Shown: positions 22,929 to 63,337, counted from the stretch's first letter. The stretch is 64,000 bases of DNA from Desulfatiglandales bacterium (GCA_963662465.1 OY759599.1:2656001-2720000); one strand, 5' to 3'. The notes: a model not told the origin generated them from the letters alone. Translations and numbers: made by a program.

Positions 22929-23432
22929 TCAACGAAATGGAAACAGGCGCCGGGCATCTTTGAGCAGAAGGAGGAGTTGTTTTTCCCGAAGCGGGGAGGC
23001 AACAAAGCCGAAACGTTGGTAGAAGCGGGATGCCTCGGCGTCAAGCGGATGGGCCGGCAGGGCGCGTATGCCGGTCTGCTCGGCAATCCACAGTGTACGC
23101 CCGATAGCGTCTTGCAGGAGCCCCCTTCCAATACCCTGCCCCTGATAACTGAGAGACACGGCAAGGCGGGCGAGGATCACGACCGGAATTGGGTAATTTC
23201 CCATGCCTTTCCGGATGCGCTCGGGGGCATCCATGGCGGCCACTTCTCCGACCGTCAAGCTGTAGTAACCAACGACACGCGCATCCTCGGTCACAGCAAA
23301 GGTCCTGGCAGATCCACTGGCGTGGGCCTGTAAGGCATGGCGAATCAACCACGCATTCATGCTCGACTTACCAGAGTCGAAAGACCCGAAGGAGTGACCT
23401 TTATGAATAGGTTTGGGGCCGGTCAGGGTCAT
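22929..23432 (-). CDS. GNAT acetyltransferase toxin (TacT/AtaT-like)
   Basis: FDSG, VVGYYSL, PIPVVILARLAV, QGQGIGRGLL, FYQRFGF; overlaps the antitoxin stop codon. Confidence 0.88.
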   Translation of the reverse strand: MTLTGPKPIHKGHSFGSFDSGKSSMNAWLIRHALQAHASGSARTFAVTEDARVVGYYSLTVGEVAAMDAPERIRKGMGNYPIPVVILARLAVSLSYQGQGIGRGLLQDAIGRTLWIAEQTGIRALPAHPLDAEASRFYQRFGFVASPLREKQLLLLLKDARRLFPFR

Positions 23433-23731
23433 GCCTTATCCCAGGGCGCGGGTTTCGACCACAAGTCCTGTAAACCGGCATTGGGCTTTGGGGGGCGATC
23501 CAGCAGCGCCATAAACTCTTGGTATTTTGCCTCGGAGACCATGAAGATTCGCTGATCCAGCAGGGTCTGTTCAGCGGCCCGGCAAGCACTGTCCATGACG
23601 AATTCGGTCAGCGACTTATGACAAGCCTTTGCCGCATAACGCAGAACAGCCTCTTGCTCAGGGGTAGCCCGTAGCCCGAGCCGAGCCGATTTCACAATTC
23701 CTTTTCTGAGCGGTTTTGTTGCAGCCATCAT
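23429..23731 (-). CDS. DUF1778 ribbon-helix-helix antitoxin (TacA/AtaR-like)
   Basis: RLGLRAT..AA..KSLTEFV..A...LLDQR..F..LLDRPP.PN. Confidence 0.88.
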   Translation of the reverse strand: MMAATKPLRKGIVKSARLGLRATPEQEAVLRYAAKACHKSLTEFVMDSACRAAEQTLLDQRIFMVSEAKYQEFMALLDRPPKPNAGLQDLWSKPAPWDKA

Positions 23732-23885
23732 CGACCTCCTTGTGAATGAATTTGGATATGTTAGTACATCCGACGAACAATATCAAGGAATTTTGAACAA
23801 GAATGGCTCTTGAGGAAGCTCTGGAGCAGTTTACCTTGGTCTCCAATTAAAAAAATCCGGATCATTTACGCGAGACACCCCGCTG

Positions 23886-24311
23886 CACTTCCCCCACCTT
23901 GCAGGTATCGCGACGGTTTTCCAGACGCACGGTCAGGGTTTCTCGTTTCTCGGTGGGCGTGGCATAATTGGTGAAAATATCCGCCTCTACGGTGACGGGT
24001 CCGGTGAGGCTTGGGGCGGCGGCGCCGTAGTAGTTGGCTTCGATAATATAGGTCCCTTCCATGGCCCGGCGCAGCAGATATTCTTCCGGGCCGTATCCAT
24101 CCGTGAAGTCCTTGGAAAGGAGTCCTCCCAGGGTAGTTCTCCGGTGTTTGAAGGTGGCCTGTTCACCCGAGGGTTCCGTAACCCAAAGGTCAATATCGGT
24201 GAGATCGGCATCCCAGGCCAGCACAATGCGGAGGGCGAGATCCATGGGGAGGATAAGCCGGCTGTCCACTTCAATATGCCGGACGCCGAACTTTCGGGCC
24301 ATGGGCAGGAG
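23886..24311 (-). repeat. 426-bp direct repeat of the 3' end of the VIT/DUF2135 gene (other copy 25068-25493)
   Basis: Offset 1182 nt with about 4 mismatches seen by eye. This copy runs on to the stop at 23862 (..KVGEVQRGVSRK*). Confidence 0.95.
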
Positions 24312-24403
24312 TTTGAAGGAAACCCTGTTGGCCAAATAAACATTGCAGGCGCTGTATCGATCGTGGTATGTAGTACATGAATATAATCGATGGAGGTTAC
24401 GCC

Positions 24404-24610
24404 ATGCAAATAGTGACTGTTTCTCCAAAATTTCAAGTAGTAATCCCACGAGATGTAAGAGAATCTTTACATCTACGTCCCGGACAAAAAATGCAGGTTG
24501 TTGAATACGAAGGAAGAATTGAATTAATTCCTAACCGTGACATTTCAGAACTACGAGGCTTTTTAAAAGGAATCAACACCGAGTTTGTGCGGGAGAAAGA
24601 TAGGATATGA
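24404..24610 (+). CDS. AbrB/MazE-family antitoxin
   Basis: MQIVTVSPKFQVVIPRDVRESLHLRPG; GGAGG RBS; ATGA overlap with the toxin. Confidence 0.9.
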   Translation: MQIVTVSPKFQVVIPRDVRESLHLRPGQKMQVVEYEGRIELIPNRDISELRGFLKGINTEFVREKDRI

Positions 24611-25002
24611 ATATCATAGATTCCTCGGCCTGGTTGTCATATTTCACTGATGAACCCACCGCTATTCATTTTAGTACTCCGATACAGGATGTAAAATCAC
24701 TTGTTGTGCCGGTCATTACCATCTATGAAGTTTTTAAAGTGGTGCTACGAGAATCAAGTGAGAATGATGCATTACAAGCTATTGCAGCAATGCAGAAAGG
24801 CACTGTAGTTGACTTAACATCAAGTCTGGCAATAGCCGCATCCAAGCTGAGTATTCAACATAAATTACCCATGGCAGATAGCATCATTCTTGCTACTGCC
24901 AAGAATTATAATGCAACGATCTGGACTCAAGATATCGATTTTAAAGATATTCCAGGGGTGAATTACTTCCCAAAATCAAAAAATGGCCAACCAAACGCTT
25001 AA
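24607..25002 (+). CDS. vapC: VapC PIN-domain toxin
   Basis: IIDSSAW, IYEV, MADSII, WTQDIDF acidic PIN residues. Confidence 0.9.
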   Translation: MNIIDSSAWLSYFTDEPTAIHFSTPIQDVKSLVVPVITIYEVFKVVLRESSENDALQAIAAMQKGTVVDLTSSLAIAASKLSIQHKLPMADSIILATAKNYNATIWTQDIDFKDIPGVNYFPKSKNGQPNA

Positions 25003-25070
25003 CCTGTCCGGAAGGGGCACGGCGGCGCTAATAGCGGCATGTTCCGCGGCAGGCAGGTCGAGCTCCACAC
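24985..25070 (+). mobile_element. integron attC-like site closing the abrB-vapC cassette
   Basis: GGCCAAC-N5-GCTTAACCTG...CAGGTCGAGC-TCCAC. TGGCCAAC is the exact complement of GTTGGCCA at 24327-24334 upstream of abrB. The terminal GTT is absent. Confidence 0.6.
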
Positions 25071-28000
25071 TTCCCCCACCTTGCAGGTATCGCGACGGTT
25101 TTCCAGACGCACGGTCAGGGTTTCTCGTTTCTCGGTGGGCGTGGCATAATTGGTGAAAATATCCGCCTCTACGGTGACGGGTCCGGTGAGGCTTGGGGCG
25201 ACGGCGCCGTAGTAGTTGGCTTCGATAATATAGGTCCCTTCCATGGCCCGGCGCAGCAGATATTCTTCCGGGCCGTATCCATCCGTGAAGTCCTTGGAAA
25301 GGAGTCCTCCCAGGGTGGTTCTCCGGTGTTTGAAGGTGGCCTGTTCACCCGAGGGTTCCGTAACCCAAAGGTCAATATCGGTGAGATCGGCATCCCAGGT
25401 CAGCACAATGCGGAGGGCGAGATCCATGGGGAGGATAAGCCGGCTGCCCACTTCAATATGCCGGACGCCGAACTTTCGGGCCATGGGCAGGAGACGGTTA
25501 AGTTCCAGCAGGGCCGTCAGCGCGATTTCCCGAAAGCGATCCCATGGTGTGACAACCACGTGGTAGAGCAGCGCGATGGCCCTCGACAGGTCTTTTCCGC
25601 CTGCCGGGTCACCCTGATTTTCGGACAGTCGGATCAGGGCCCGATCAGACAGAACCAGTGCCAGGTCCCGGTAGGACTGGGGCTCTTCGCCCCGCAGTTT
25701 GAGGGTCTGTTCAAACACCCCGATGCTGTCATCGAGTCGGCCCCACTGACGGAGGCGATGGGCCAGAACACGCAGAAGCGGCCCGTTTTCGAGATCCAGC
25801 TCAGAGATATTATACAGGACCCGCAAGGCACGATCAGGCTCCCCGTGGCGTAGAAAGAAGTCGGCGCAATCCAGGTAGAAGCCGGGGGCCTTTCCGTATG
25901 CCTTCCTCTGTTGAAGGTAAGCGGCATAACGATTTTCAGCCCCGGCATTTTCGAGAGGCGTAAGATAGGGCGTATCCGGATTCCAGGGTTTGATCCGGAT
26001 CGAGGAGGGCGCTTCCCTTTCGAACGATGCCATGTCCTTCAAGGGCGTTTCTGATCCTGCCGGCTCGGGATTTCGCCGAAGGAAAGCGGGGTACTCCAGC
26101 GCCTGGTCGTTGAACTCGAATCGATCAAGCACCGATCTCCGGCCTGGATCGGCGTTTTCCTCTCGGCGCCGTGCCGTGGATCTTCTTGAGAAGGTCGGGA
26201 TGTCCATTTCCACGGACGAGTTCCTGTTGAGTACCCATTCGTCTTGTTTAGTGTCGGCGGCAGGGGGCGTATGGCACTCGGCGATCTTTTCGCGGGGAAA
26301 GGTTTCTTCCCACCACGCCACCCGTTTTTGCCAAAGCGCCAGAACCGCTTCAATGCGCTTTTCCTGAGATCTGCTCTTTTCCCGGGCCTTTTCCGCCGAA
26401 CGGGCATCGTATTGCGTCCTCATTTCAGGCAGGGAGGCCGGGGGCCGGATTTGATGCCGTACGTACTGGTTGAGGTTTTCCAGAACAATAAGGGATGTCT
26501 CCGGGGTTACCAGTCCATGGGTTCGACCCAGATCCCGAATGGCTTCTTTGTGTTTTTCCGGCTGAAGAAGCCATTCATCCAGTTGACGCTGGGCCCAGTA
26601 GGGGCGAAGCACATCCCCTGAAAATCCGTCGTTTTTTTGTATCCGGAAGGATCGGGTCACCATGGTTTTGCCGGCAAGGCCATAACGCAGCGTAATGTCG
26701 GCGCTTTTTCCAATCAGTTTGCCGCACACCGGCATGGGGCCAAGGGCCGGGACCGGAAGACCGGGAACCACATCTTTGACGTCCCCGGGTTCGCACGCCA
26801 CACCCAACAGCGTCATTCCGATGCGGCCGATGCGCGGCAGAACATCTTCCATGCCCATGCGGGTCAGGTTGAAATACGCTCCGCCCGACTGAGCAGACTG
26901 AAAGCGCAGCACATGATGGGCCGCGCTCACGGCATCCGATACCACATACAGGGGCCGGTTGAATCCATTGGCCGGTTGATCGTCTTCCAGCGTATTGAGC
27001 CCATCGGAAAAGAGGAAATAGAGATCCGCATTCCCGTTCTGAGGCGATGCCAAAGATAGACGGGTGGCGCCGTCATAATCGAGAGCCCCGATGGCCGTCA
27101 GCAGGGCCTCCCCATTGCCGTTTCGAATGGTGAAGGATTGCGTCTTATCCAGGGCGTCTCGAAACGGGATGAGGTCCACATCCATGGTCCGGTCCTGAAA
27201 TTGAGCAAACCAGCGTCTGAGCAATTCCATTTCCCGTTGGTGATCGCCTTCCCTCGAAGCGGAGGCATCCCAGTAGATGAGGACCTTTTTGGGTACTATC
27301 ATTTCATCGGACAGGACCCTGGGGGCGTCGTCAAAGAAAGTGAAATAGGTGTTGCCGTCGCTGTTTTGCTCAACAGCCGGAGGTGGGTTTTCCACATGGG
27401 GAAAGGCGATGAGCAGCCCATGATGCAGGGCCTCGTCCTGACGGGAGATCTCCGCCACCAGGCTGTCGGACGTCCCTTCAAAGTGTAGACCTTCCCAGGG
27501 GGCGGATCGAACATCAGGCTTGGTTCCGCTCCCACAAACCTCCACGCGGAGGTGAAATGCGGGGGATACTCTCCTCAAAATGGAGGGGAAGCTGGTAGAG
27601 CCCGGTCTTCTCTTCCGGGAGCAGTTCCGAAATGAACCGGACCCGAGTGGTTCTCTTTCCCTGTGCGGGAATGGGAAAGACCCGGGTTTTAAAAACATTT
27701 CCTTGGGTGTATTCCACCAGACCCGGATCAATGCCCGCACGTACGGTCTTCTCAAAGACGATGCGGCCCTTTTCCTTCTCCACGGGCGCCCCGTCCACCA
27801 TGCGACCCTCCACATCGAGGGCAAAGCCGCTCACGGTTGCCCCCTCCGGAAGCGGAAAATAGAGGTCTCCGGCCAGTACACGGTCATTGGGGTTATAAAA
27901 AACAAGGGTCATGGCGGTGTCTGCCACAAACCCGTGAATCCGAATGTCCACATCCACCCGCGCAAGCCTTACGGGGCTTTCGGTCCCGGTCGTCTCGGCA

Positions 28001-28089
28001 GCGGGGACCATAACAATGGGTGTAAGGGTCTGCGTGACCCCCAGGGCTTGATTCGGCGCCCATATGCTGATGTCGTCTTGTGTTTTCAT
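24999..28089 (-). pseudogene. VIT-domain / vWA-like / TPR / DUF2135 protein, split by a +1 frameshift (or a sequencing error)
   Basis: VIT motifs (FYNPNDRVLAGDLYFPLPEGATVSGFALD, DPGLVE, FKTRVFPIP) are in one frame; YWDASASR and DIDLWVTEPSGE/DFTDGYGPEEY are in another. Removing one G from G5 at 27561-27565 joins them (..ESIPAFHLRVEV..). Confidence 0.85.
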
Positions 28090-28184
28090 GAAGGAATGCC
28101 TCCCTGGTTTGTATCTCATGTAAAACCAAAAAATTCAATGCATAAGAAATCAAAAAAATACGACCACTGACACCGCTTCATTAC

Positions 28185-29489
28185 CTAGAGAACAACGACT
28201 TCCGGCAGGGGCTTGATGAAATGTTGCCTTAGGCTGTAGGTGTAGGCGCCCTGGGTCGGTACCATGAGGATATCACCGATCTCAATTCCCGACCCCCAGT
28301 AGGTATATCCCCAGACATCGTGGGGGGTACATAAAGACCCCAGAACGTGGCAGGGCTTTTCCGTAAGAGCAGGTCGCGAAAGGTTCAGGACCGGAAAATA
28401 GTCGGTTTCAAACCGCTCCCATCCCACGGCGTTGGTCCCGGCGTCGGTAATGACCAAACCCGATCCCTTCTTGTCCACGACGCGGATGAAAAGGTGCATG
28501 GCGTCGTTGGAAATCCAGCGACCGGGTTCAAGGCAGATCCGGGCCGACACCAGGGGGCGCAGGTGCTTTTGAACAGCTTCGCCGATGGCCTGCGCGAAAA
28601 CTGTGATCGGCACGGCCTCAATGCCGTGATGAAGCTCCGGCGACCCCGGGGATTCGCCAAGGGCCTCTCTCAGCCTTCCTTCCGAGGTACCGGCCGGTTG
28701 AAGCCATTCACCCGCTTCGGGCCAGTACCCCCCACCGATATCCACAAATTCAATGCTTCTTCTCAAGGACGGCTGCAAATGCCGGAGGATTTTCGCAAGC
28801 TGCTCGATGAAGGCCACCTGGTTGCCCGGGTCAAGACTCCAACTCGTATGGAACTGCAACCCGCGCATTCGAAGGTGAGGGCTTTGCGCGGCCTGTACCA
28901 TAAAATCGGCCAACGCCTCGGGCAAAATGCCGAATTTTCGCCACAACCCGGTGGGTTGGGTGGTCAAACGAACCCCGATGGAAACCACCCGGTTGCATGC
29001 CGCGGCCGCTTTTTCGAGTCTTTCGAGTTCTGTGAAACTATCGACCAACACAACAACCGATTCAGAATGGGCCGCTGCCAGGACCAGCTCCCCTTCGGTC
29101 TTTCCCGGACCGCTGAAAACAATGTCCCTCGCTCCCAGGGCCAGGGCCATTTCCAGCTCGATGCCGCTTGACACGTCGAGACCGAACCCGTTTTCGAGAA
29201 GGATTTCGGAAACGCCGGAATAGTTGTTGCTTTTCACCGCATAGTAAAAAGAGACCGGATCCAACACCTGGGAAAAAGCGGCCATAAACTGCCGGGCACG
29301 ATGGGAAAGGGCCTCACAGTCAAGGACATAGACGGGCAGACAAACTGGGTCAAGCCTGTCAAGAAAACGACGACCGCGTTCGAAATATTCTGATGCAAAC
29401 CGGCGCAGTACCGAAACATCGAGCGAAGGCGTTCGGGTTTCCAGCAGGCGCCGGGCCCGTTCCAGGGAGGGTATTATTTCAGACGGCAT
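28185..29489 (-). CDS. PLP-dependent fold-type III decarboxylase (diaminopimelate/ornithine decarboxylase family)
   Basis: YAVKSN, GPGK, KFG, VDIGGG, EPGR, GSLCTPHD, GAYTYS. Confidence 0.9.
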   Translation of the reverse strand: MPSEIIPSLERARRLLETRTPSLDVSVLRRFASEYFERGRRFLDRLDPVCLPVYVLDCEALSHRARQFMAAFSQVLDPVSFYYAVKSNNYSGVSEILLENGFGLDVSSGIELEMALALGARDIVFSGPGKTEGELVLAAAHSESVVVLVDSFTELERLEKAAAACNRVVSIGVRLTTQPTGLWRKFGILPEALADFMVQAAQSPHLRMRGLQFHTSWSLDPGNQVAFIEQLAKILRHLQPSLRRSIEFVDIGGGYWPEAGEWLQPAGTSEGRLREALGESPGSPELHHGIEAVPITVFAQAIGEAVQKHLRPLVSARICLEPGRWISNDAMHLFIRVVDKKGSGLVITDAGTNAVGWERFETDYFPVLNLSRPALTEKPCHVLGSLCTPHDVWGYTYWGSGIEIGDILMVPTQGAYTYSLRQHFIKPLPEVVVL

Positions 29490-30760
29490 TATAGTTCTCC
29501 AATTTCCACCAGAAGAAGATCCGTCAATTCACGGCACTGGTCGGCTAGACCCTGCTCCTCATACGGGCGCACGACGGCATGGCCCAGGACCCAGCTGTCA
29601 TAATTTTCAGGCGGAAGCAGGATGTCATCACCCGGAAATCGGATCAACTGAATATCCATCACCCGGGGGTCCCCGGCAAGCCGGGTCGTATCGATCCGGT
29701 TAAGCCTTCCGGATTTCCGGGCGTGAAAACGAAGGCCCAGATAGGGCCCGGATGCCGGCGGTAAAATCGGCGGGTGAGACCGTTTTCGAGCAAAATCGAG
29801 GTTCAGTTTCAGGATGTCGAAATGGCAAACGGTTTTCAAGAGAAAGGGAAGGCAGTCTCCCCCCGGACGAGGCGCAATCTCAAGAAGAAGGATGTCCTCC
29901 CCCCGAACCATAAAATCGAGCATACACACGGCCCGGGTGATCCCCACGGCCCGGGCGCTTTCAAGAAGGGTTTCTTCCAAGCGTTGCCGGTTGATTTGCG
30001 TCGGAAGATGGGCCGGCAGTACATAAGCCCGTGTGGTGCCGAAGGGAGCGGTGGAATCAATGATTTTACCGGTCAACCGAAGGATCTCGATGCGATCCGC
30101 CGCCACAATAAAATCGCAACTGAACTCCCGACCCTCAATCAGTTCCTCGGCAAGGATAAGCGGGGCTTCGCTGGACCCGTTACGGTACATCGGCATCGAT
30201 CGGCGATCGTTCAGGCCGTTCCGGATGTCCCGGAAACGCTCGGCGCAACCTTGTTCGGTGCGGCAGGAGAAAATAAGTTCGCTGCCGCTGCCGGAGGCCG
30301 GCTTGAGTACGCACGGACCGTCGATCGAACGAAAAAATGCGACGGCTTCGCTTTCCGAGGCGACCTGTTTGCAACGAGGGACGGCAAGACCGTGCCGGCG
30401 CCAGAGGATCTTGGATCGGTGTTTGTCCCGGCAGTTGGCAACAGCCTCTGAAGAAGGATATGGAAGACCGTAGCGGTAAGCGAGAACGGCGGCAAGCCCC
30501 ATGGATTCACAGTCGAAACAGGCAATGCCGTCGAGAGAGAGATTCTCCCGGTGCAGATGCCGCAACAGAACCGCTTCGACCCGACCGACGTCTGATAGAT
30601 CGCAAAGGACTTCTTCGCAACCCGGCGGACGACTTTCCCGCGCATGGCGCCAAACCTCCGTATCAGTCAGAAACAGGGCACTTCCAGAACTTTCCCGCTG
30701 AATCCAGGCGATGTAGTCCGGGGTGGCGCCGACCACGAGGGTTTTAGTTAAGCGAGACAT
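29489..30760 (-). CDS. ATP-grasp ligase
   Basis: CRDK, VLKPASGSGS, EELIEGREFS, LLEIAPRPGGD; TAATG overlap with the decarboxylase gene. Confidence 0.88.
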   Translation of the reverse strand: MSRLTKTLVVGATPDYIAWIQRESSGSALFLTDTEVWRHARESRPPGCEEVLCDLSDVGRVEAVLLRHLHRENLSLDGIACFDCESMGLAAVLAYRYGLPYPSSEAVANCRDKHRSKILWRRHGLAVPRCKQVASESEAVAFFRSIDGPCVLKPASGSGSELIFSCRTEQGCAERFRDIRNGLNDRRSMPMYRNGSSEAPLILAEELIEGREFSCDFIVAADRIEILRLTGKIIDSTAPFGTTRAYVLPAHLPTQINRQRLEETLLESARAVGITRAVCMLDFMVRGEDILLLEIAPRPGGDCLPFLLKTVCHFDILKLNLDFARKRSHPPILPPASGPYLGLRFHARKSGRLNRIDTTRLAGDPRVMDIQLIRFPGDDILLPPENYDSWVLGHAVVRPYEEQGLADQCRELTDLLLVEIGEL

Positions 30761-31694
30761 GGGAAATTTTTTCTGTTCGAGCGGAAATCCGGATCTTGTA
30801 AAGGGTCCTGGGCGTCAGATGAAACCGATGCTTCCAGCCGAAGTCTCCACAAAGAAAATCGACGGATTTCATTCGGGTTTCACAGGCCCAGCGAATATGG
30901 TGAAAATTGATCAGCTTGGCCACCCCCCGAAATTCCGGATCAACACCGCCGGCCAATACGGTATAGGCCCCGGCCCAGACCGCACCAATATCCACGGCCG
31001 CAACCCGACCGCCGATGGTTACAGTGGTAACCCGCAAAAGGCCTTCGTTGTAAAGCCATGCCACAAGGTTTTCGAAGGATTTCAGGAAGCGGGGGTCATG
31101 GAAGTAGGACCGGTCGCCGAAGCCCGCCAGGTTCATGTGAAACAGGGTGTCGACGTCCGATAAGTCGTTGTATCGGTAGGAAACACCCGCCGATTCGAGG
31201 GGCGCGAGTTCATGACGGAGTTTTTTACGGGTTTTTCCGGAGAAGCGTTGCATGAACCGGTCGAAGGTATAACCACACTCGGCCGGAAAGAAGAGGTATC
31301 CGGTTTCATCCGGTTCCACGCACAACCCTTCGGGGAGCAAGGATTCGCCGGTGAGATAGCGGATATACGCTTCTCCGGGGACATTGTCAATCAGTTGGTC
31401 GACAACGCCTTTCCTTCGAGCGATGATCCGGTTTTGTTCGAGCCAGGTCTTGCCCTGCCAGGTTTCCCCGGGGAAATGGCCGAATGACCCCTGTTTTTCG
31501 ATCCAACTCAGGGCCAGGAGCCCCTGGATACGGCCTTCGACATCTTCCGCCGTGATAAAACAGGGGCGGCGGCCGAAAGGGTCCGCAAAGCATTCCCGGA
31601 CCGGCCACAGGTCGAATAGACAATCCCGGGGCATTAATGCCTGCCACAGCCGGGCGCATTTTTCAGGATCTTCGTGCCGCTGGATTCGGTACAA
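30744..31694 (-). CDS. GNAT-fold protein (BioF2/FemAB-like acyltransferase domain)
   Basis: FSGKTRKKLRHE, RVAAVD, GVAKLIN, VDFLCGDFGWK.RF pattern. Confidence 0.7.
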   Translation of the reverse strand: MYRIQRHEDPEKCARLWQALMPRDCLFDLWPVRECFADPFGRRPCFITAEDVEGRIQGLLALSWIEKQGSFGHFPGETWQGKTWLEQNRIIARRKGVVDQLIDNVPGEAYIRYLTGESLLPEGLCVEPDETGYLFFPAECGYTFDRFMQRFSGKTRKKLRHELAPLESAGVSYRYNDLSDVDTLFHMNLAGFGDRSYFHDPRFLKSFENLVAWLYNEGLLRVTTVTIGGRVAAVDIGAVWAGAYTVLAGGVDPEFRGVAKLINFHHIRWACETRMKSVDFLCGDFGWKHRFHLTPRTLYKIRISARTEKISHVSLN

Positions 31695-31696
31695 TG

Positions 31697-32155
31697 TTAT
31701 TGCCTCAACGTGACATTCAGAGCACTGGTTGAACCGCCGAAGAAATCCTCCGCAAACCCCCGAACCGTCTCGGGATCATAGGGTTTGCAGCTGAAAACAT
31801 CCAGATAGACCGCATTGGTCTGGTTGGCGAAGTGAGCGCTGATCAGGGAGGTCTCGATCAATTGAACCATCGAATACCCCGCTACCCGCTCATCCTCGCC
31901 GAAGTGAACCACCTGGGTCTCACCAAATCGCTTCATCTCGATGAGATCGCACAGTTCCACGACGAAGCGGCGAATCTTTTCCGCATCGCGGATTGCATCG
32001 GGGTCGCAGTTATAAATGTCGATGGCCGAAGCGATTCCCCAAGCGTTGCGGGCGATGGCGGTTTCCATCCAATTCCCGTCAACGGTTTCGAACTCTTTTT
32101 CAATTCTGTTGATATTCAGCATATTTTTCCTTTCTCTGAGAGCATGAGTCGACAC
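31697..32155 (-). CDS. speD: S-adenosylmethionine decarboxylase-family pyruvoyl proenzyme (start may be ATG 32122)
   Basis: DIYNCD, HFGE..GYSMVQLIETSLISAHF, YLDVFSCKPYD. Confidence 0.82.
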   Translation of the reverse strand: MSTHALRERKNMLNINRIEKEFETVDGNWMETAIARNAWGIASAIDIYNCDPDAIRDAEKIRRFVVELCDLIEMKRFGETQVVHFGEDERVAGYSMVQLIETSLISAHFANQTNAVYLDVFSCKPYDPETVRGFAEDFFGGSTSALNVTLRQ

Positions 32156-32209
32156 TGTTTTTCATCCTCGGCCACAACCGACGCCGAAGAGATGGTTTTG
32201 GTGATCGAC

Positions 32210-32226
32210 AGCATACATCGTGCCAA
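32210..32226 (-). promoter_or_regulatory. sigma54 -24/-12 promoter of the speD-like operon
   Basis: Minus strand TTGGCACGATGTATGCT (GG-N10-GC), directly upstream of the operon. Confidence 0.8.
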
Positions 32227-32602
32227 TGAAAGAGAAATTCACAACTTATTGTTAATATGGAAAAATTGGCTTTACTCGCCGATCAGAATTGTTAAAGGGA
32301 GGCTAAAATAAGAAATTGATTGCCATTTACAGTAAAAAACGGTATTTGTTTTCTGGTAATGGCCTGATTTTTCCCTGAACAGGGGGGCGCAGGCTGACGC
32401 TTTCAGAATTAGGGCTTGACATAATTCCTGTCCAACCCCCCTATTTTCCTTTTAAGCGTCATAAATAATAACGTTTTTTTATTTTACCAGACGTTTTGTC
32501 GCCATCAGTCGGCGATCGCTGGACAAAAACATATCGGTAAATGATTACCGAAAACAACGCCCGGTCCGGAAAGAACCGGGCCTACACCCCGAGGAAAAAC
32601 CC

Positions 32603-34021
32603 ATGCTGATTCGACTGGCCTTTTCGATTCGAAGCAAAAAGCTGGAAAACCAGCTCAAACGCCGTTTCCTTCTTTCCGATGTCCGAGTGGAAAGTTACGG
32701 ACAGCTCTCAACCCCCTGGCAGAAGGTGGTTCGAAGCTGCTCGGACATCATCGTCATCAGCGAATCGTTGCTGCCGCGCCCGGTCGAATCCGGGATCGCC
32801 ATACTCAACGATCTTCCGGAAAACCCCACCACGGTGGTCCTCTGCAACAACGACTCGGCCGAAGAGCAGGCCAGGCTGGTGGCCGCCGGCGCCGACGTGG
32901 TGCTCTACTCCGGCATTTCCGAAAAAAGCCTTGCCGAGGCTATCGAACGGACACTCGAATCCAGACGCCAGCTCCACCAGATAGACCGCTTTGATCGAAA
33001 AGGGTCCAGCCGCCCCCGGATCGACGACTTCATCTCCGACAGCGGAAAGATGCAAATGTTCATGGACGAGGTCCACCAGATCATCCCCAGCAGCTCGGTT
33101 CTTCTGATTACCGGCGAAACCGGCGTGGGGAAAGAACACCTGGCAAAGGCGATCCATGCTGAAAGTCCCCGGTCAGCGGGGCCGTTTATCGCCGTTAACA
33201 CCGCGGCCCTTCCCGAACAGCTTCTTGAAAGCGAACTCTTCGGCCACGAGCAGGGGGCCTTTACCGGCGCCGTACGATCCCGCCGGGGCGCCTTCGAACT
33301 GGCTCACGGCGGAACGATCTTTCTCGATGAGATCGGGGAGATGCCGCTGCACCTGCAGACCAAACTGCTGCGGGTTCTGCAGGACTACGAGGTGCAGCCC
33401 GTCGGCAGCGAAGCGCCTATCTGGGTGGATGTCCGGATCATCGCCGCCTCGAACCGGAACCTCGAAGAAGAGGTGGCAGCGGGAAATTTCCGCAAGGATC
33501 TATACTATCGGCTCAGCGTGGTGACGCTCACCATTCCCCCGCTGCGCCTCCGCAGAGAAGATATTCCAACCCTGGTCGAGTATTATGTGAATTTTTACCA
33601 GCAGAAGATCGGCCGAGACGTCACCCGGATTTCGGACGCCGCCATGCAAGCGTTTTGCCGCTACGACTGGCCCGGCAACGTTCGCGAACTAATGAACGTA
33701 ATCGAGCGGGCCATGTTGCTGTGCAAGGGGGATGAAATCACCACGAAGAACCTGCCCAGCGTCCTGCAGGAAGACGCCGGGGACATGGAAACCGTCTTTT
33801 CAGGGGGCGCCGGGTTGAACCTGTCATCCTGGCGGGGGAAAACCCTCTTGGAGGTTCAGAAAGAGGCCCTGGACCACGTGGAACGGCTCTATCTGGAAAT
33901 GATCCTTTCCGAGACCGGCGGACGGGTGGGCGAAGCCGCCCTGAAGGCAGGGATTCATCAGCGAAGTCTCTACAACAAAATGAAACGGCTGAGCCTTAAA
34001 AAGGAGTCGTTTCGGCGCTGA
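32603..34021 (+). CDS. sigma54-dependent enhancer-binding protein with a degenerate receiver-like N-terminus
   Basis: GETGVGKE, ESELFGHEQGAFTGA, FLDEIG, WPGNVREL, C-terminal HTH. Confidence 0.93.
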   Translation: MLIRLAFSIRSKKLENQLKRRFLLSDVRVESYGQLSTPWQKVVRSCSDIIVISESLLPRPVESGIAILNDLPENPTTVVLCNNDSAEEQARLVAAGADVVLYSGISEKSLAEAIERTLESRRQLHQIDRFDRKGSSRPRIDDFISDSGKMQMFMDEVHQIIPSSSVLLITGETGVGKEHLAKAIHAESPRSAGPFIAVNTAALPEQLLESELFGHEQGAFTGAVRSRRGAFELAHGGTIFLDEIGEMPLHLQTKLLRVLQDYEVQPVGSEAPIWVDVRIIAASNRNLEEEVAAGNFRKDLYYRLSVVTLTIPPLRLRREDIPTLVEYYVNFYQQKIGRDVTRISDAAMQAFCRYDWPGNVRELMNVIERAMLLCKGDEITTKNLPSVLQEDAGDMETVFSGGAGLNLSSWRGKTLLEVQKEALDHVERLYLEMILSETGGRVGEAALKAGIHQRSLYNKMKRLSLKKESFRR

Positions 34022-34677: not shown

Positions 34678-37600
34678 AGCCGCATCTTGCAGTCCTTCAA
34701 ACAAAAGACTGTTTATTATGCACGGTTTTGTATAAAAGTCGAGGCTATTCAGCAATTATCAGCAATTCTAAATTTGAACGGGGTCTAAACCGTTTTCTAG
34801 CTTATCCGCCGGTTTTAGATTGGGATATCCTCTATTTGTGAATGCGGGCATTGGTCCAGAAAAAAGCAGCCGACATCCTGGGGTTGATCTATCACCAGTT
34901 CCGCGGCCTCTATCGAACAGTGAAAAACGATTTAAAACAATCAAAGCGCTGAGGATGAACAGTATCGAGAGCCTCAAACGGTACGATTTCCCTTTCAAAC
35001 TCCAGAAATTCGCCCTCTCTCCATGTCCTGGTAAGTTTACCAAGACCATTGTCAAAGCTCCATTTCAGGTCTAGTCCGAGGGCCTGGTGCAGTAGATCAA
35101 TAACGGTTTGGTTGATTGACTCACCCATCCACAACCCAAAGGACAGCATTTTTTTGACCATGAATATGGACAGAAAATTAATTTGATGGTAAGAGAGGCG
35201 GCTGTTGTTACGCTGACTTCTGCTTGAAATGAATTTGGGGGAAACGCGTTTCACCTACAAAGGGTATCGAAATAAGAGCGATCTCCCGGTTATTTGCTTT
35301 TCAAGAAGGAGGATTGGGTATGAAGCGGTTGTTGGCAGTATGCGCTATTTTGTTTGCGGTCTTTTTTGGGGTCAGTGCCCATGCACATTTGATAGGAGTG
35401 GATTTTAATTATCGATCAAGTTATCCGACTCCCACAAACTGGACGAGTGTTTCCACCTGGGGAACGACCGATTCCTTGGGAACTGAAACCGGTGGATCGA
35501 CGGAGGTGAACCTTGCAGTCACGAATATCGCTTCAAAAGAACCGCCAAACAGAGGCTTTTATTATGCCGCTGTCAATGCTGTAACCATACCCCAGCATGC
35601 GCCTTCCCTGGCAAACATTGGAGGGAATATCTATGGATTTGCAATGCCTGGATCTTTGGCTAAACTGGAATTGAAGTTCACAGGGCTTGATGGGGGGAAA
35701 AGCTATAAAATCTGGGTTTTTGGTTTGAGAACCGGTGGCGAAGGGGTATACCAAGATGTGTCTATAGAGGGGCTTGCTACAATATCCTTCCCACAACAAG
35801 CAATTAGCGGAAACCTCGTTGTAAATAATTCTTTGGGCAACGAGAACTTCGATTTATCAAGTTATGCAAAAGACATAACGCCCTCTGCCCTTGGTGAAAT
35901 TATCATTACAATTACTTCAAACCCACTCTCATCTGACAAGCTTTATTCCCTCGCGGGCGTTGCCATTGATGTTCCCACGCCCACGGTAACCACCCAGGCG
36001 GTGACCGGTGTTGGAACAACCACCGCCATCGGGAACGGCAATATTACCAATCTCGGTGATCCCAACCCCACCCAACACGGTGTCTGCTGGAACACCACCG
36101 GGACGCCCACCACTGCGGATAGCAAAACAGAAGAGGGTGCGGCAAGTGAGACCGGCGCCTTCACTTCCAATATGACAGGGCTATCCAACGGCACCACCTA
36201 CTATGTCAGGGCATACGCCACCAACGCTGTTGGTACCGAATACGGTGAAGAGGTTAATTTTACAGCCACTGAGCGAGCACCCACGGTAACAACTCAAGCG
36301 GTCACCGGCATCGGCATAAACGCGGCAACAGGCAACGGCAATATCACGGATTTGGGCGATCCCAACCCCACCCAGCATGGGGTGTGCTGGAACACCACAG
36401 GCAATCCAACCGTTGCCGATTCCCACAAGGACAACGGGGCGGCTTCGACCACAGGGGTCTATACCGCAGACATCACCGGCCTGACGGAAGGAACAACCTA
36501 TTATGTGAAAGCCTATGCCACCAATACGGAGGGAACGGTCTATGGGGCTCAGGTGGCGTTTAAGACCAACGTGACCTTGACCATGGCCCGAACCCCGGAA
36601 GCAGGAGGCACAACCACGCCCGTGGCGGGATCCACCACCAGCGTGGCGGCCGGCGTGGCGCAGAATATCACAGCCTCACCCGCCACGGGATATCATTTTA
36701 TTAACTGGACGGCAGCCCCGTCCGGAAATGCCACCTTCGAAAACGCGTCCAATGCCGCTACCTCCGTCACCCTCACGGGCTCGGCCACGGTCACAGCCAA
36801 CTTTGCCATCAACACCTATACCCTGACCGCCGCTACGAACCCTGTGGTCGGCGGTACGGTAACCAAGAATCCCGATCAGGGCACCTACGACCACGGCTCA
36901 AACGTTCAGGTCACAGCCACAGCCAACGCCAATTACGTCTTTACGGGCTGGTCCGGTAATCTCTCCGGCGCCGCCAATCCCACTTCCATCACCATGGACG
37001 GAAACAAAAACGTCACCGCCAACTTCGCGCTCACATACACCGTTACCTACAACGGCAACGGGAATACCGGCGGCAGCGCACCCACGGACGGCAATGCCTA
37101 CCAGGCAGGCGCCGATGTGACGGTTCTTGGGAACACCGGCGCTCTGGTTAAAACGGGCTATATGTTCAAAGACTGGAACACGGCGGCGGACGGCAATGGG
37201 ACATCCTATGCGCCTGGAGCAAACTTCTTTATGCCCGGGGCCAACGTGATGCTCTATGCTCAGTGGACCGCTAACGAGTACACCGTAACATTTGATGCCA
37301 ACGGCGGGACCGACCCCGTACCTGCGAACAAATCGGTCACCTATAATGAAGCCTATGGGCAACTGGCGGAAACCACACGGGATGCGTATTCCTTCGCCGG
37401 TTGGTTCACAGCAGCCACCGGCGGGACCCAGATAACATCGGAAACCGTTGTGAATAGCGCTGAAAATCACACGCTTTACGCCCAATGGACGCACATTCCC
37501 TACTACATGGCCAAAAATGCCGGCAACTGGAGCAATACGGGTATCTGGTTCACCAACACCACCGGCGGCACAAACCCTGCCGACTACGCCACCCCTGCCA

Positions 37601-38130
37601 CTGAGATGCCGAACGCGAACAACTCACTGGGAATTATCGTCAACGCCCTTGTAGCGGTAGATACGGCTGTAACCATTGATCAGACTACGGTCAATGGGGA
37701 AAAGACCCTCACAGTGAATAATGAGGTAACCCTTACCCTGGCCAACGGCACAGGAACAGACCTGACCGTTTTCGGAGTTTTCACCAATAATGGAACCGTT
37801 ATCTGCAATGCCGGAACAACGGTTGATTTCGCTGGTGTGGACCAGATTCTACCAGCCATCACCTATCAGCATCTGACCACCTCGGGCGCCGGAACCAAAA
37901 CCCTGGGAGGCGACATCATCCTGAGAGGAAACCTCACCATCGGCGCCGGTACAATACTGGATGGGAGCGAAAACAATTACGGCATTTCCATTGATGGCAA
38001 CTGGACCAACAACGGCACGTTTACGGCTCGAGAGGGCGAAGTGCGTTTTGAAGGTTCCGCGGTACAAAGCATCACGGGAACGCCTTCGTTCCATAACCTG
38101 ACCATTGCAAATACAGTTTCAGTGGATGCA

Positions 38131-38174
38131 TCCGGATGCACCGCCCTGACGGTCCGGATGCACCGCCCTGACGG
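38131..38174 (+). repeat. perfect 22-bp tandem duplication at the first frameshift
   Basis: TCCGGATGCACCGCCCTGACGG x2. Confidence 0.95.
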
Positions 38175-41100
38175 TTGCAGTTGACCGTGAATACCGGAAC
38201 CTTTACCAGCGCCTCGGACTATCACCATGTGAGCATTGCCGCAGGTGCGACCCTGGCTCAGTCGGGCAACATAACGGTCAGCGGCAACTGGAACAATGCC
38301 GGTACACTGACCCATAATAACCACACCGTAATCCTTGATGGCGGAGATCAGCAGGTCCTGGGCGATACGGACTTTTTTAACCTGATGAAAACCGTTGCCA
38401 GTGCCGTTACCCTGACCTTCGAGGCCGGGAAAACCACAACGCTGGGTGGCGCCCTGACCCTTCAGGGTGTAACAGGTCAGCTTCTGTTCCTGCGCAGCAG
38501 CACTCCGGGAACCCGGTGGAACATCAACCCCCGAGGCACGCGAACCATCGGCTATGTAGATGTGCAGGATTCCAATAACACTAACGGCGCGGCCATCAAC
38601 GCCGGAGAGGGAAGCATCAACTCAAACAACACTGTGAACTGGTTGTTCTATCCCGATGTGACGACTCAGGCGGTCACCGGCATCGGCATAAACGCGGCAA
38701 CAGGCAACGGCAATATCACGGATCTGGGTATTCCCAATCCCACGGCCCATGGGGTATGCTGGGGCACGAGTACCAATCCAACCACCAGCGACGGCAAAAA
38801 GGACATGGGTGCGACAACATCCACGGGAGCCTTTACAACAGCCATCACCGGGCTTGGCGCCGCCACCGCTTACCATGTGCGAGCCTTTGCCACAAACACG
38901 GCTGGGACCAGTTATGGTGAGGATGTAACTTTTACGACCCTGCCCAACCCGCCGGGTGTACCGGTCGCAAAGGCCGCCACCGCTAGTAACGCAACCGGAT
39001 TTACCGCTAACTGGAACACCAGCACAGGCGCCACCGGTTATCGTCTGGACGTGGCGACCAACAGCGCGTTTACCAGCTATGTGAGCGGATACCAGGATAA
39101 AGATGTGGGCAATGTCACCACTACCAACATTTCAGGCCTGTCGGGCGGCGCCTCCTACTATTATCGGGTGCGGCAAAGAATACCGGCGGCGCCAGCGAAA
39201 ACTCCAATACCATAACCGCCACCACGCTCTGCACGGCGCCTGTAGCTACCGCCGGCACAAACATAACCCAGACCGGTTTTACCGCCAACTGGAACGTCGT
39301 CACCGGGGCCACAGGTTATCGGATAGACGTGGCGACCAACAGCACGTTCACCAGCTATGTGAGCGGGTACCAGAATAAAGACGTGGGCAATGTCACCACG
39401 ATCAACGTTTCAGGTCTGTCGGGCGGCGCCTCCTACTATTATCGGGTGCGGGCGCAAAACGCTATCGGCGCCGGCGAAAACTCCAATACCATCAACGTAG
39501 GCACGGGTGAACTGCCCACCCAGGTGAGCCTGGTAGGACCCGGCACGGTAAACGTGGGAACGGTATCCACGGCCTTTACACTCACCAGCCGGGACAAGAA
39601 CGGAGACCCGGTGGACGTGAATCAGGATACGGTGTTTGATTTGACGTCCACTTCCAGCGCTATTTACGGATTTTACCGGGACAGCACGGGGAAACTAGCC
39701 ATTACCCAGGTCACCATCACCGTTGGAAGTCAAACAACTACCTTTTACTACAAGGATACGGCATCCGGTACTCCCACGTTGACCGCCACCCATAAAAGCG
39801 GCATGACCCTGGGCGCTGCAAACCATTCGATCACCGTGCAGGGAGGAACAGTCTCGGGGATCGTTTTTGATGATCTAAATGGTAACGGCATTCAGGATAC
39901 CGGTGAACCCGGTATCTCGGGCGTCACAGTGAAACTGCTGAACAGTGAGGGGGTTGTTTCAAAGACCGATGCCACCAACAATGACGGCAGCTACCGATTC
40001 ACCAGCGTCAGCGCCGGTATTTACACCGTGGAGGAAACGGATCCCGCGGGATATGCCAGCACCACCGGCAACAGGGTTACCGTATCGGTTTCATCCAATG
40101 GTTCGGCCAGTGCCAATTTCGGTGATCAGAACCAGGGAACCGTTTCCGGCACCGTCTTTCTGGATGTCAACGGCAGCGGCATACAGGATCCAAATGAGCC
40201 TGGCATCAGCGGTGTTACCATGAAATTGATGAACAGCGAAGGAGGTGTTTCCCAGACCGATATCACCGATAATGACGGCAATTATGCCTTCAGCGGCGTG
40301 AGCGCCGGGACGTACAGAGTTCAGGAGACAGACCCCGCTGGTTATACCAGCACCACCAACAACATCGTTCCACTGTCCATCATTTCCGGAGGATCCGCCG
40401 GCGCCAACTTCGGAGATAAGATTCAGGGGACAATTTCCGGTCATGTGTTTCTAGACATCAACGGCAGCGGCATACAGAACGCGGATGAACCGGGGATCAG
40501 CGGCGTTACCGTAAAACTGCTGAACAGCCAGGGGGGTGTTTTAAAAACGGACAACACCGAGGCGAATGGGAGTTACGGGTTTACCGGGGTAACCTCGGGG
40601 GCCTACAAAGTCCAGGAGACGGACCCCGCGGGGTATATCAGCACCACGGACAACACGGTTCCGGTGTCTGTGACCGGTTCAGGGGGTGTGACAGCGAACT
40701 TCGGGGACCAGGAAAGCGGGACCATCTCCGGTACGGTTTTTAGCGACATCAATGGAGACGGCATCCGGAACGAATTAGAAAAGGGTCTTGGGGGTGTAAC
40801 CGTGACACTATTGGTCAATGGATACATGTTGTCCAGTACCCTCACCGGCGGAGACGGCAGTTACAATTTTACCGGGCTGAGCGCCGGCGCCTACACCATA
40901 GAGGAAACGGATCCTTCCGGATATGGCAGCACCACTGACAACAGTATTAGCGTCACTGTGGGCTCAGCGGCCGCCACAGCCAGTTTCGGGGATATTCCCC
41001 TTGGGACCGTATCCGGGGTGGTGTTTAATGACACCAACGGCAATGGTCGACAGGACCCAAATGAAAAAGGGATTGGCGGGGTCACGATAAACCTGCTGGA

Positions 41101-42365
41101 TGCCCAGGATGCGCTTGTTGAAACCATTACCACCGCCGGTGACGGGGTTTACCTGTTCCAGAACCTCTCTGCCGGGACTTACACTGTGGAGGAAATCTAT
41201 CCATCCGGCTACACCGGTACAACCATCAACCGGGTAACAGTAACAGTGGGTGCGCAGGCAGCGGCCGAAAGCAGTGTGGCAACAGCGAACCGGGGAGTGG
41301 CAGCCGCCAACTTCGGCGTACTCCAGCAGGAATCCGTATCCGGGGTAGTGTTTAACGACACCAACAGCGGTGGCACGCAGGATTCCGGGGAAAACGGGGT
41401 GGGCGGGGTCTTAATTACACTGCTGGATGACAAGGGATCGACGGTTTCCGGCGCCCATACGGCGGGAGATGGCACTTACGGTTTTTACAACCTGCAACCG
41501 GGTGATTATGACATTGAGGAGACCTATCCAACCGGTTACACCGGCACCACCCCTCGAACCGTATCCGTCACTGTAACCGACGGTGGCGCCGCCACGGCCG
41601 GCTTTGGTATTCTGCAGGGGGACATCCCTGACCAGGTAACCCTTGAGGGTCCATCATCGGCAGCCCTGAACCAAGTATCCAATGTCTTTACCCTCACCAG
41701 CAAGAATAGTAATGGGGATATCTCCAACGTCACAAGCGATACCGTATTTTCCCTTGCGTCCAACTCGACCGGCGCCGCGAACTTCTACAGTGATGCGGCA
41801 GCCACCACAGTCATCACCCAGATGACCATTTTTGACGGTAATAACAGCGCCTCCTTCTATTATAAAGACACGGCGCCGGGCAACCCCACCATCACCGCCA
41901 CTCGCACCAGCGGCATGAATCTGGGAGCAGACACCTATCAAGTAACGGTGAACGGTTCTCCGAACACCCAGGCCGGCAATATCGTTTTCAGTAATATAAC
42001 CGGTACGGGAATGAAGGTGGCCTGGACCCGCGGCAACGGGGAAAAGGTCCTGATTGTGGTACACAAGGGGAGTGCCGTGGACACTAACCCTGTGGACAAT
42101 ACCGCCTATACGGCCAATGCAACCTTTGGTGGCGGCAGTGAGATCGGTACGGGAAACTTTGTGGTGTACAAGGGAACCGGAACGTCTGTGATTTTGACCG
42201 GCCTGTCAGCGGGCTGGATCTATTACGTACGGGCCTATGAATTTAATGATATCGTTGACGAGGTCTATAATACCAACACAGCCGCGAACAACCCCAACAG
42301 CCAGAGTACTCTCCCCAGTGCGCCGACGGCAACGGCGGCCACCGGCGCCACGGGGACAGGCTTTG

Positions 42366-42839
42366 CCGCCAACTGGAACGTCGCGACGGGAGCTACGGGT
42401 TACAGACTGGATGTATCGACGGAAACCAATTTCAGCAGTTATGTCACGGGATATCAAAACAAGGATGTGGGAAATATGACCACCGCTTCGGTAACCGGAC
42501 TGATGCCCCTTACGAAATACTTCTACCGTGTGAGGGCTTATCATGCCGGCGGGGTGAGTGAAAATTCCAATACCATCAGTGTCACCACCACTTTCAATGC
42601 CCCGGTAGCAACAGCGGCCACAGCCGTAACTGAGAAAAGCTTTACCGCCAACTGGAACGTCGCGACGGGAGCTACGGGTTACAGACTGGATGTATCGACG
42701 GAAACCAATTTCAGCAGTTATGTCACGGGATATCAAAACAAGGATGTGGGAAATATGACCACCGCTTCGGTAACCGGACTGATGCCCCTTACGAAATACT
42801 TCTACCGTGTGAGGGCTTATCATGCCGGCGGGGTGAGTG
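42366..42839 (+). repeat. 195-bp identical intragenic repeat (42366-42560 and 42645-42839) encoding tandem FN3 domains
   Basis: Offset 279 nt (93 codons); identical by eye. Confidence 0.9.
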
Positions 42840-43019
42840 GAAATTCCAATACCATTAATGTCACCACAGCAGTCCCTATTCCCACCCTGAATGAATGGGG
42901 TATGATCATCCTGGTGATGCTGATGATGGGTTCGACGCTTTTTGTCATGCGGCGAAAAAAGATGGAAGACTGAAGTCACCAAAAGGCTTTTTTCATTTGA
43001 CAAACGAATCCTATAGGCC

Positions 43020-62496: not shown

Positions 62497-62513
62497 TTGG
62501 CACGGTTCATGCT
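62497..62513 (+). promoter_or_regulatory. sigma54 promoter with upstream palindromes
   Basis: TTGGCACGGTTCATGCT (GG-N10-GC); TCGACA-N4-TGTCGA at 62417-62432 and TGTCGCGACA near 62394-62403. Confidence 0.8.
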
Positions 62514-62803: not shown

Positions 62804-63337
62804 AAACAGACGCACACCTTTGCCATGAAAATACAGCCGTTAGCTGTTAGCTTAAAAGCGGTAGAGGATTTTCATGTTTGGGGGTGGCAAATCCCTTGTC
62901 ATGGGGGTTTACCGAGGAATCCAAAGCGGGAAGCCTCCAAATGAAGGAGACTTCCCACCTCCAAACGCCAACCGAAAATTCATTCCCCTGAGCAGATGAA
63001 ACAGGCGGAAAAGAATCAGCATCCTTCGTAAAAAATTCTCCTTAAGCACTTATTTTTCTTGACATGATACCATTTAATATCTCATCATTTGAAGATATTC
63101 TCACCAATCATTCAGTTCCTATCCAGAGGGTTAGAGTTGCAAGGGTTGATCCGGAAATTAATATTTAATGCTCTCCTTTCACGACGGTTGAAAAGGATTG
63201 GTTTTCAGAAATGGCCAATACCCGGCCTCCAAAGGGACTCCCGTTGCTTTGGAGGCAAAACAAGTACAGCAATTCTCTTTTTGACTCATGGGAAAAATTC
63301 ACCCGGCAAAACTTTTATCTTGTATTGGAGGAAAAAA

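Follow-up and report, generated by a model that had tools for sequence, protein, structure and literature searches.

A conserved four-gene cassette under a predicted sigma54 promoter in Desulfatiglandales, proposed to build an amide-linked putrescine conjugate

What might be made by an operon that couples a pyruvoyl-dependent decarboxylase, a GNAT-fold transferase, an ATP-grasp ligase and a pyridoxal 5'-phosphate (PLP)-dependent decarboxylase? The question is raised by a 64,000-nucleotide stretch (hereafter, the window) of the complete, 8.16-Mb genome of a Desulfatiglandales bacterium (GCA_963662465.1, OY759599.1:2656001-2720000), for which an earlier reading of the DNA, the original prediction, had proposed a sigma54-controlled pathway to a polyamine/amino-acid conjugate made independently of nonribosomal peptide synthetases. 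The layout announced there holds (Table 1). The genes follow the order speDC, Fem-type transferase, ATP-grasp ligase and fold-III decarboxylase, with a 2-nt gap after speDC and overlaps of 17 nt and 1 nt (TAATG) at the next two junctions, and the gene of a sigma54 enhancer-binding protein runs divergently. Spermidine synthase is indeed missing from the locus; of the two PF01564 matches in the genome, one is a membrane-fused protein of 710 aa and the other is short and methyltransferase-like. None of the four enzymes attains any NCBIfam cut-off, and the closest named relative of the decarboxylase gene comes from a Desulfatiglandales metagenome-assembled genome (MAG). The cassette is a real, conserved and uncharacterised pathway, each of its enzymes coming from a known superfamily and SpeDC from a known family. 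We consider it rather probable that this sigma54-induced accessory operon builds a small, polycationic, amide-linked conjugate of putrescine and amino acids without a carrier protein.

The genes of the cassette travel together. A scan of species genomes for the decarboxylase yielded 65 loci, of which 61 have the ligase (split matches counted once per locus), 59 have the transferase and 47 the activator; a SpeD-like match is present in 45, and the order is kept. The ligase adjoins the decarboxylase in 60 of the 65, and most missing ligases or transferases fall at contig ends or in one unrelated locus (L065). In an even sample of 301 genomes of the phylum, at least 90% complete, one and the same set of 17 genomes, and no other, encodes decarboxylase, transferase and ligase, the genes being neighbours where contigs allow; the outcome that would have refuted the original prediction, genes that do not co-occur elsewhere, is thus not what is seen. 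The decarboxylase is also found in 13 of 41 nearer relatives, and named carriers extend to Nitrospirota, Zixiibacteriota, Verrucomicrobiota and Lentisphaerota. Cultured carriers include Desulfogranum marinum DSM 2058, Desulfocicer vacuolatum DSM 3385 and Desulfamplus magnetovallimortis. No relative of the cassette was found in viral contigs, and all 356 plasmid records were below 60% identity, the 15 listed standing at about 28-31%.

The first gene near-certainly encodes SpeDC, a pyruvoyl-dependent L-ornithine decarboxylase that would produce putrescine. Its probable start codon is the ATG at 32122, preceded by a purine-rich ribosome-binding site. In the numbering of the longest open reading frame (ORF), S103, H108 and C123 form the class 1b S-adenosylmethionine decarboxylase pattern of a self-cleavage Ser, a His at +5 and a Cys at +20, with the spacing given for S63/H68/C83 of T. 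maritima in the available part of Li et al. (JBC 2023; PMC10407285). According to the same part of that work, ornithine-decarboxylating SpeD homologues form a single clade marked by Gln, Thr, Phe and Tyr; all four diagnostic residues are found here (Q98, T102, F109, Y117; motif Q-x-I-E-T-S...H-F...Y), at positions equal to those of the assayed domain in Fig. S5. Because ETSL marks SpeDC, and because 79 of 114 residues are identical (ungapped, counted by eye) to the proven ornithine decarboxylase (ODC) domain of Desulfotignum phosphitoxidans SpeD1SpeD2, the product of the gene is expected to make putrescine. The original prediction had noted ET-SL in place of E-SH as an anomaly; the motif is present, but it is the published SpeDC signature, and the SpeD-like pyruvoyl enzyme can be narrowed down to an ornithine decarboxylase. 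All full-length cassette copies carry the SpeDC motif (43/43 and 22/22). A PDB sequence search with the SpeD-like protein gave no real match.

The genetic context differs from those given in the available part of PMC10407285, namely speD/speE, casdh/casdc or hss, whereas here SpeDC heads a transferase-ligase-decarboxylase operon under sigma54. It is the sole AdoMet_dc protein of the genome. Spermidine is made by a housekeeping operon, speA-CASDH-CASDC-speB (agmatinase-like), located apart from the cassette (G000:C1:426180-431319, L066), and no deoxyhypusine-synthase-like gene above cut-off was found in the genome. Carboxyspermidine-type routes can bypass putrescine, as stated in the Discussion of PMC13625781; such a bypass would account for a putrescine source within the cassette itself.

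Does the cassette need putrescine? The 65 loci comprise 43 with speDC, 13 without an intact copy and 9 left out because of short upstream DNA or because they are unrelated. With this genome, 14 genomes of the phylum sample that have an adjacent speDC and one that does not (G279; G120, undetermined, was left out), 14 speDC-less genomes could be compared with 58 speDC-bearing ones. The agmatine deiminase gene aguA scores above cut-off in 8 of the 14 and in none of the 58, two of which have weak matches below it. A PLP-dependent ODC-like gene is present in 4 further speDC-less genomes and in 1 of the 58; two of the four lie in speD-speE-ODC operons with GPTCD, one being the search query itself. 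Altogether an alternative putrescine route exists in 12/14 versus 1/58 genomes, in a comparison between related and often incomplete MAGs. In three loci (L022, L025, L034) aguA and aguB sit near the activator gene. Losses of speDC map to several separate branches, some with speDC-bearing sisters, in a quick tree with 17 open forks, and two remnants subsist, one with the catalytic middle deleted (L002:5423-5734), the other reduced to the C-terminal 31 residues (L010:5632-5753). As for other candidate routes, a SpeD fusion in G336 was rejected as a replacement ODC, its second domain having no ETS motif, and arginase-family matches in 4/5 speDC-less genomes were not counted since the window genome has one too. 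On the other side of the balance, neither aguA nor an ODC-like gene was found in the speDC-less genomes G343 and G346, the other two ODC-like genes are weaker (30-38% identity), and AguA can also act on aminopropylagmatine, as reported in the available part of PMC13625781. The complementarity of speDC, aguA and ODC is nonetheless our best evidence that putrescine is consumed, weakened as it is by kinship, incomplete MAGs and the range of AguA. Fisher p-values for it take no account of kinship and were given no weight.

Judged by its sequence, the fold-III decarboxylase is a member of a distinct family and not LysA. The catalytic set is invariant in 38 aligned rows (PLP Lys86, GGG loop, EPGR, Cys387, Tyr416), but the protein scores 146 bits against the lysA profile TIGR01048, whose cut-off is 298. 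The motif at the catalytic Cys, GSLCTPHD, resembles GPLCTPED of BtrK, the diaminopimelate decarboxylase motif being GPICETGD; after the Cys, one reads TPHD here, TPED in BtrK, TPKD in 6knh, which we take to be SbnH of the staphyloferrin B pathway, and ETGD in LysA. The Arg/Tyr carboxylate clamp of LysA aligns with Trp357 and Glu361, and the specificity element reads GWERFE here and GWE[RK]FE across the family. N-citrylornithine decarboxylase 7kh2 and BtrK lead the profile matches, with LysA 2p3e almost level with them; among the top profile matches, 7kh2 is the sole full-length, single-stretch one, and the HD motif is common to both proteins. The predicted pocket suits an alpha-amino acid whose side chain carries a neutral amide and ends in a distant amine. 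The ESM Atlas added family-level look-alikes only. Thus, the assignment to fold III with an intact catalytic set stands, but instead of making a free diamine, as first proposed, the enzyme probably decarboxylates a side-chain-amidated conjugate.

The ligase assignment was also confirmed. From its residues, the protein is an ATP-grasp enzyme of the L-amino-acid-ligase type with intact catalytic residues (invariant K113, K153, GSGS, E205, E212, D282, E294 and R298-x-G-G-D-C), and its best PDB matches are 4dim, BL00235 (3vot), 4wd3 and BacD. It shares full-length ATP-grasp architecture and catalytic residues with BL00235 and BacD, and differs from them by the invariant RxGGDC loop and by being fused or coupled to a decarboxylase. 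Ligase-decarboxylase fusion proteins do occur (representatives P0121, P0124, P0125 and P0126), as does a transferase-ligase fusion (L055).

As for the transferase, its AlphaFold2 model (predicted local distance difference test score, pLDDT, 90) has a double-GNAT fold, in line with the GNAT label of the original prediction. Its top four structural matches (VIA; Z 16.1-17.4) are Sbb17 (Z 17.4, root-mean-square deviation 3.8, 262 aligned residues), FemX twice (Z 16.9 and 16.8) and FemA (Z 16.1), while tandem GNATs that use acyl-CoA reach at most Z 13.8, about 3 Z units behind. A basic helix (K154/R156/K157) and an invariant W287-K288 pair resemble the tRNA helix and the catalytic Lys that are reported for FemX (Lys305) and DhpH (Phe328/Lys329) in the available part of PMC12945691, a match by motif and position, not by residue-level superposition. 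Sbb17/Sba18, Orf11, DhpH and FemX, as covered there, have in common with it the double-GNAT fold and, as judged by motif and position, would share the basic helix and the aromatic-Lys pair near the C-terminus, with identities of only 12-18%. The label can therefore be refined by these structural matches: the transferase is probably an aminoacyl-tRNA-dependent, Fem-type enzyme rather than an acyl-CoA acetyltransferase, although similarity of fold is no proof of the donor. A PDB sequence search with the transferase gave no real match.

How might these enzymes work together? SpeDC would first convert L-ornithine to putrescine. The ATP-grasp enzyme would then activate Glu or Asp at the side-chain carboxyl and couple this group to an amine of putrescine, after which the fold-III enzyme would strip the alpha-carboxyl to leave 4-aminobutyryl- or beta-alanyl-putrescine, in which homospermidine and spermidine find their amide analogues. 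The two steps may iterate, as in closthioamide. Finally, the Fem-type enzyme would add an alpha-amino acid from aminoacyl-tRNA to a free amine, although this might also precede the coupling. Precedents for the central steps are described in the available parts of PMC7183216 and PMC11350588: Glu or Asp is loaded by an ATP-grasp enzyme via its side-chain carboxyl and then turned into 4-aminobutyrate or beta-alanine by a decarboxylase of the same family, iteratively in closthioamide. BtrJ/BtrK of butirosin and CtaD/CtaF of closthioamide thus pair, like the cassette, an ATP-grasp enzyme with a PLP decarboxylase of the ornithine/diaminopimelate/arginine family, and BtrK shares the CTPxD motif, but according to those sources they need a carrier protein, which putrescine would replace as acceptor here. 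The cassette also differs in its L-amino-acid-ligase-like ligase, in having a Fem-type transferase and SpeDC, and in having no antibiotic tailoring genes. The product, the order of reactions and the role of the pathway are inferred. We hold it quite likely that putrescine is incorporated in a product with amide linkage; the exact Glu/Asp side-chain chemistry is a plausible guess that may well prove wrong. The conjugate proposed in the original prediction remains our best reading; the genes co-occur strictly and the enzymes are not plain LysA and SpeD. In this reading we have recast the roles of SpeDC, transferase and decarboxylase. It is tempting to speculate, though this is doubtful, that anaerobes have here a third route to spermidine-like polycations through amide-linked analogues, made by carrier-free ATP-grasp/decarboxylase chemistry and maybe iterated and capped from aminoacyl-tRNA, without S-adenosylmethionine or aspartate semialdehyde, and that a candidate-phyla branch combines this decarboxylase family with D-amino-acid enzymes in making related peptides.

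The cassette has variants. In a distant branch without SpeDC (L104, L105, L107, L108, L111, L113-L115, L118, L147, L164, L165, L174), the decarboxylase is found with a double ATP-grasp protein, L-amino-acid-ligase-like and D-Ala-D-Ala-ligase-like, with up to five ATP-grasp domains, and with genes that resemble those of Fem enzymes (on either strand), of L-Ala-D/L-Glu epimerase and, weakly, of MurL. Clusters of RimK-like ATP-grasp (RLAN) genes and C39-like peptidase genes lie just downstream of some cassettes (L012, L005, L149, L151). In about 17 of 59 loci (L006, L016, L017, L021, L026, L029, L033, L035-L037, L042-L044, L047, L052, L060, L064), the operon begins with a small ORF of 46-80 aa, about half of them charged, with the C-terminal motif K-R-F-H-R-K-K-T-x-K-D. 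It represents a real, unnamed family with 102 database matches, none with a Pfam domain. The small ORF is absent from the window and was not found in its genome by a motif scan; a search of the 301 genomes, run without a positive control, returned 0 matches.

Several observations weigh against the conjugate pathway. The ligase is truly absent from a Nitrospiraceae cassette (L012), and SpeDC was found in 0 of 25 loci of distant relatives, many of these loci being short, so that the family as a whole does not depend on putrescine. The peptidoglycan-like enzymes of the distant relatives would suit an envelope role, and the model does not account for the leading small ORF. L-amino-acid ligases that form alpha-peptides, and not specifically BtrJ or CtaD, are what the ligase resembles, and the decarboxylase pocket is read from alignments alone. 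No carrier protein gene is at hand: none of the 18 PF00550 matches of the genome falls inside the window, and none recurs as a neighbour among the top clusters of the 65 loci.

In addition, the best PDB match of the decarboxylase, 7kh2, favours an order through acyl-ornithine. The transferase or ligase would aminoacylate ornithine at its delta-amine (or lysine at its epsilon-amine), the fold-III enzyme would decarboxylate that conjugate and release an aminoacyl-diamine, and SpeDC would supply putrescine for a parallel or final step. This rhizoferrin-like order, which we regard as unlikely but the foremost competitor, draws on the full-length, single-stretch match and HD motif shared with N-citrylornithine decarboxylase; for FslC/FigC of rhizoferrin and for SbnH, too, an acylated amino acid is the proposed substrate of a fold-III enzyme. 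According to the available part of PMC13625781, some bacteria need no free putrescine to make N-citrylputrescine, and relatives that have no SpeDC could follow this order as well. However, it does not alone explain why another putrescine route replaces speDC, and the 7kh2 match is weak, nearly tied with BtrK and LysA. The cassette differs from rhizoferrin and staphyloferrin systems by its own GWE[RK]FE element and by the lack of IucA/IucC synthetase, for which no match was found in the 100%-complete genome (the control was positive in 2/14). Given the missing synthetase, a rhizoferrin-type metallophore is unlikely, a metallophore being one of the roles first envisaged.

Slightly less probable still is that the enzymes add a putrescine-containing branch to peptidoglycan stems or another surface polymer instead of making a free solute. 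The Fem fold is the peptidoglycan-branching fold, diamines are amide-linked to peptidoglycan in Selenomonas and Veillonella, and the distant relatives, one of them named from Ca. Roizmanbacteria, have the D-Ala-D-Ala-ligase-like fusion, the epimerase and the weakly MurL-like protein. Yet the MurL matches are far under the cut-off (18-32 bits versus 700), the transferase is structurally closest to a small-molecule synthase (Sbb17/Sba18), the top neighbour clusters of the 65 loci include no recurrent gene for membrane, export or glycosyl-transfer functions, and the operon is patchy and inducible.

We give little credence to the idea that the small charged protein is itself a substrate that receives putrescine or amino acids. 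Its unnamed family and its position downstream of the promoter and ahead of the first enzyme gene would suit such a role, as would a C39-like peptidase gene nearby in 9/65 and 9/80 loci, but this locus, its genome and most cassettes do without the small ORF, and the fold-III enzyme needs a free alpha-amino-acid head. Ordinary housekeeping by LysA and SpeD for lysine and spermidine synthesis, although automatic annotations read 'diaminopimelate decarboxylase', can practically be dismissed, given the sub-threshold lysA score, the replaced diaminopimelate-binding Arg/Tyr and Glu positions, the ODC signature of the SpeD homologue, and the true lysA and complete carboxyspermidine operon encoded elsewhere in the genome.

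What switches the operon on? In the window, the -24/-12 site alone is not significant (4 matches versus 2.3 expected). Across relatives, the promoter that had been called clear is borne out: of 48 intergenic regions between activator and operon, 44 contain TGGY-N8-TGC on the operon strand, as opposed to 1 on the opposite strand and a mean of 2.3 (maximum 6) in shuffled sequences. A scan for sigma70 promoters and terminators yielded nothing informative. The genome encodes RpoN. The operator consensus is ATCGGTAA-N4-TTACCGAT, and GGTA-N6-TACC is found in 17 of the 48 regions versus 0.05 expected. A matrix trained without the window locus and its nearest relative (L001) finds operators in 46/48 loci, a count that includes the training loci, with those two held out. 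The predicted operator beside the activator start is the best matrix site in the whole genome, and the spacing of the two enhancer sites recurs in many loci. Among the 40 best operator-like sites genome-wide, two in this locus have a sigma54 site downstream; three weaker sites elsewhere have a sigma54-like core nearby. By sequence, features of a sigma54 regulon with its enhancer-binding protein are present, namely the -24/-12 site, the GAFTGA activator, palindromes about 100-150 bp upstream and rpoN. The activator seems to bind the tandem palindrome and to control this operon only, and the operator at its own start hints at possible autoregulation. Its orthologues are divergent from the cassette in 47/65 loci, at 46-93% identity, and their receiver-like N-terminal domain has Ser, Gly or Ala in place of the usual phospho-Asp (aligned N-termini, by eye). 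In one metatranscriptome (0.06 word share), short relative-derived contigs cover parts of the operon; strand and level are not readable and DNA carry-over is possible, so they were not counted.

In 19 of 80 metagenome loci (L116, L117, L121, L123, L129, L131, L135, L137, L143, L149, L154, L163, L169, L172, L180-L182 and L005 among the TetR-type loci), a TetR-family gene, one member of which was Pfam-typed, lies upstream of the same four-gene order in place of the sigma54 activator, a second type of regulation in another branch. A second sigma54-like site with one mismatch, which may be due to chance, is found in the window at 62498-62513 (+), upstream of an ORF near 63089.

No description of this combination of genes was found in the literature searched; most subscription journals were outside it, and supplements could list it. 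The cassette points to a metabolite of sediment anaerobes, cultured strains among them, that is inducible and so far undescribed, and it puts SpeDC to use beyond classical polyamine synthesis. Should the scheme be confirmed, it would represent BtrJ/K-type chemistry without a carrier protein, beside a tRNA-dependent transferase acting on a polyamine, and many database entries named 'diaminopimelate decarboxylase' or 'alanine racemase' would be mis-annotated. With about 4 kb, four soluble enzymes and a predicted operator, the operon lends itself directly to testing.

Table 1. Features of the cassette locus, in window coordinates
Feature	Position	Strand	Details
Fold-III PLP decarboxylase	28185-29489	-	434 aa; PF02784/PF00278
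ATP-grasp amide ligase	29489-30760	-	423 aa; PF13535
Fem-type transferase (Acetyltransf_6), probable	30744-31694	-	316 aa; PF13480
SpeDC (AdoMet_dc)	31697-32122; longest ORF from GTG 32155	-	PF02675; longest ORF 152 aa
Sigma54 -24/-12 promoter, TGGCACGATGTATGCT	32210-32225	-	core match; 44/48 loci
Predicted activator site, one half of tandem enhancer	32308-32327	none	matrix score 13.7; 102 bp upstream of -24 element
Predicted activator site, one half of tandem enhancer	32338-32357	none	matrix score 17.3; 132 bp upstream of -24 element
Predicted palindromic operator beside activator start	32533-32552	none	matrix score 21.6
Sigma54 enhancer-binding protein	32603-34021	+	472 aa; PF00158, GAFTGA motif, HTH_8

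Other features of the window lie outside the cassette. Within 23862-28119, a VIT/DUF2135 gene is split over two frames (27514-28119 and 24999-27824, minus strand), and its 3' end is duplicated (426 bp, 99% identical, 23886-24311 and 25068-25493) on either side of a PIN-domain gene at 24607-25002. Two overlapping small genes at 22929-23731 (-) presumably form a GNAT-toxin/antitoxin-like pair. On the other side of the cassette, a large, repeat-rich surface protein with internal repeats is encoded at 35314-42973 (+), broken into three ORFs in different frames, and ends in what we take to be an IPTL-type C-terminal tail.

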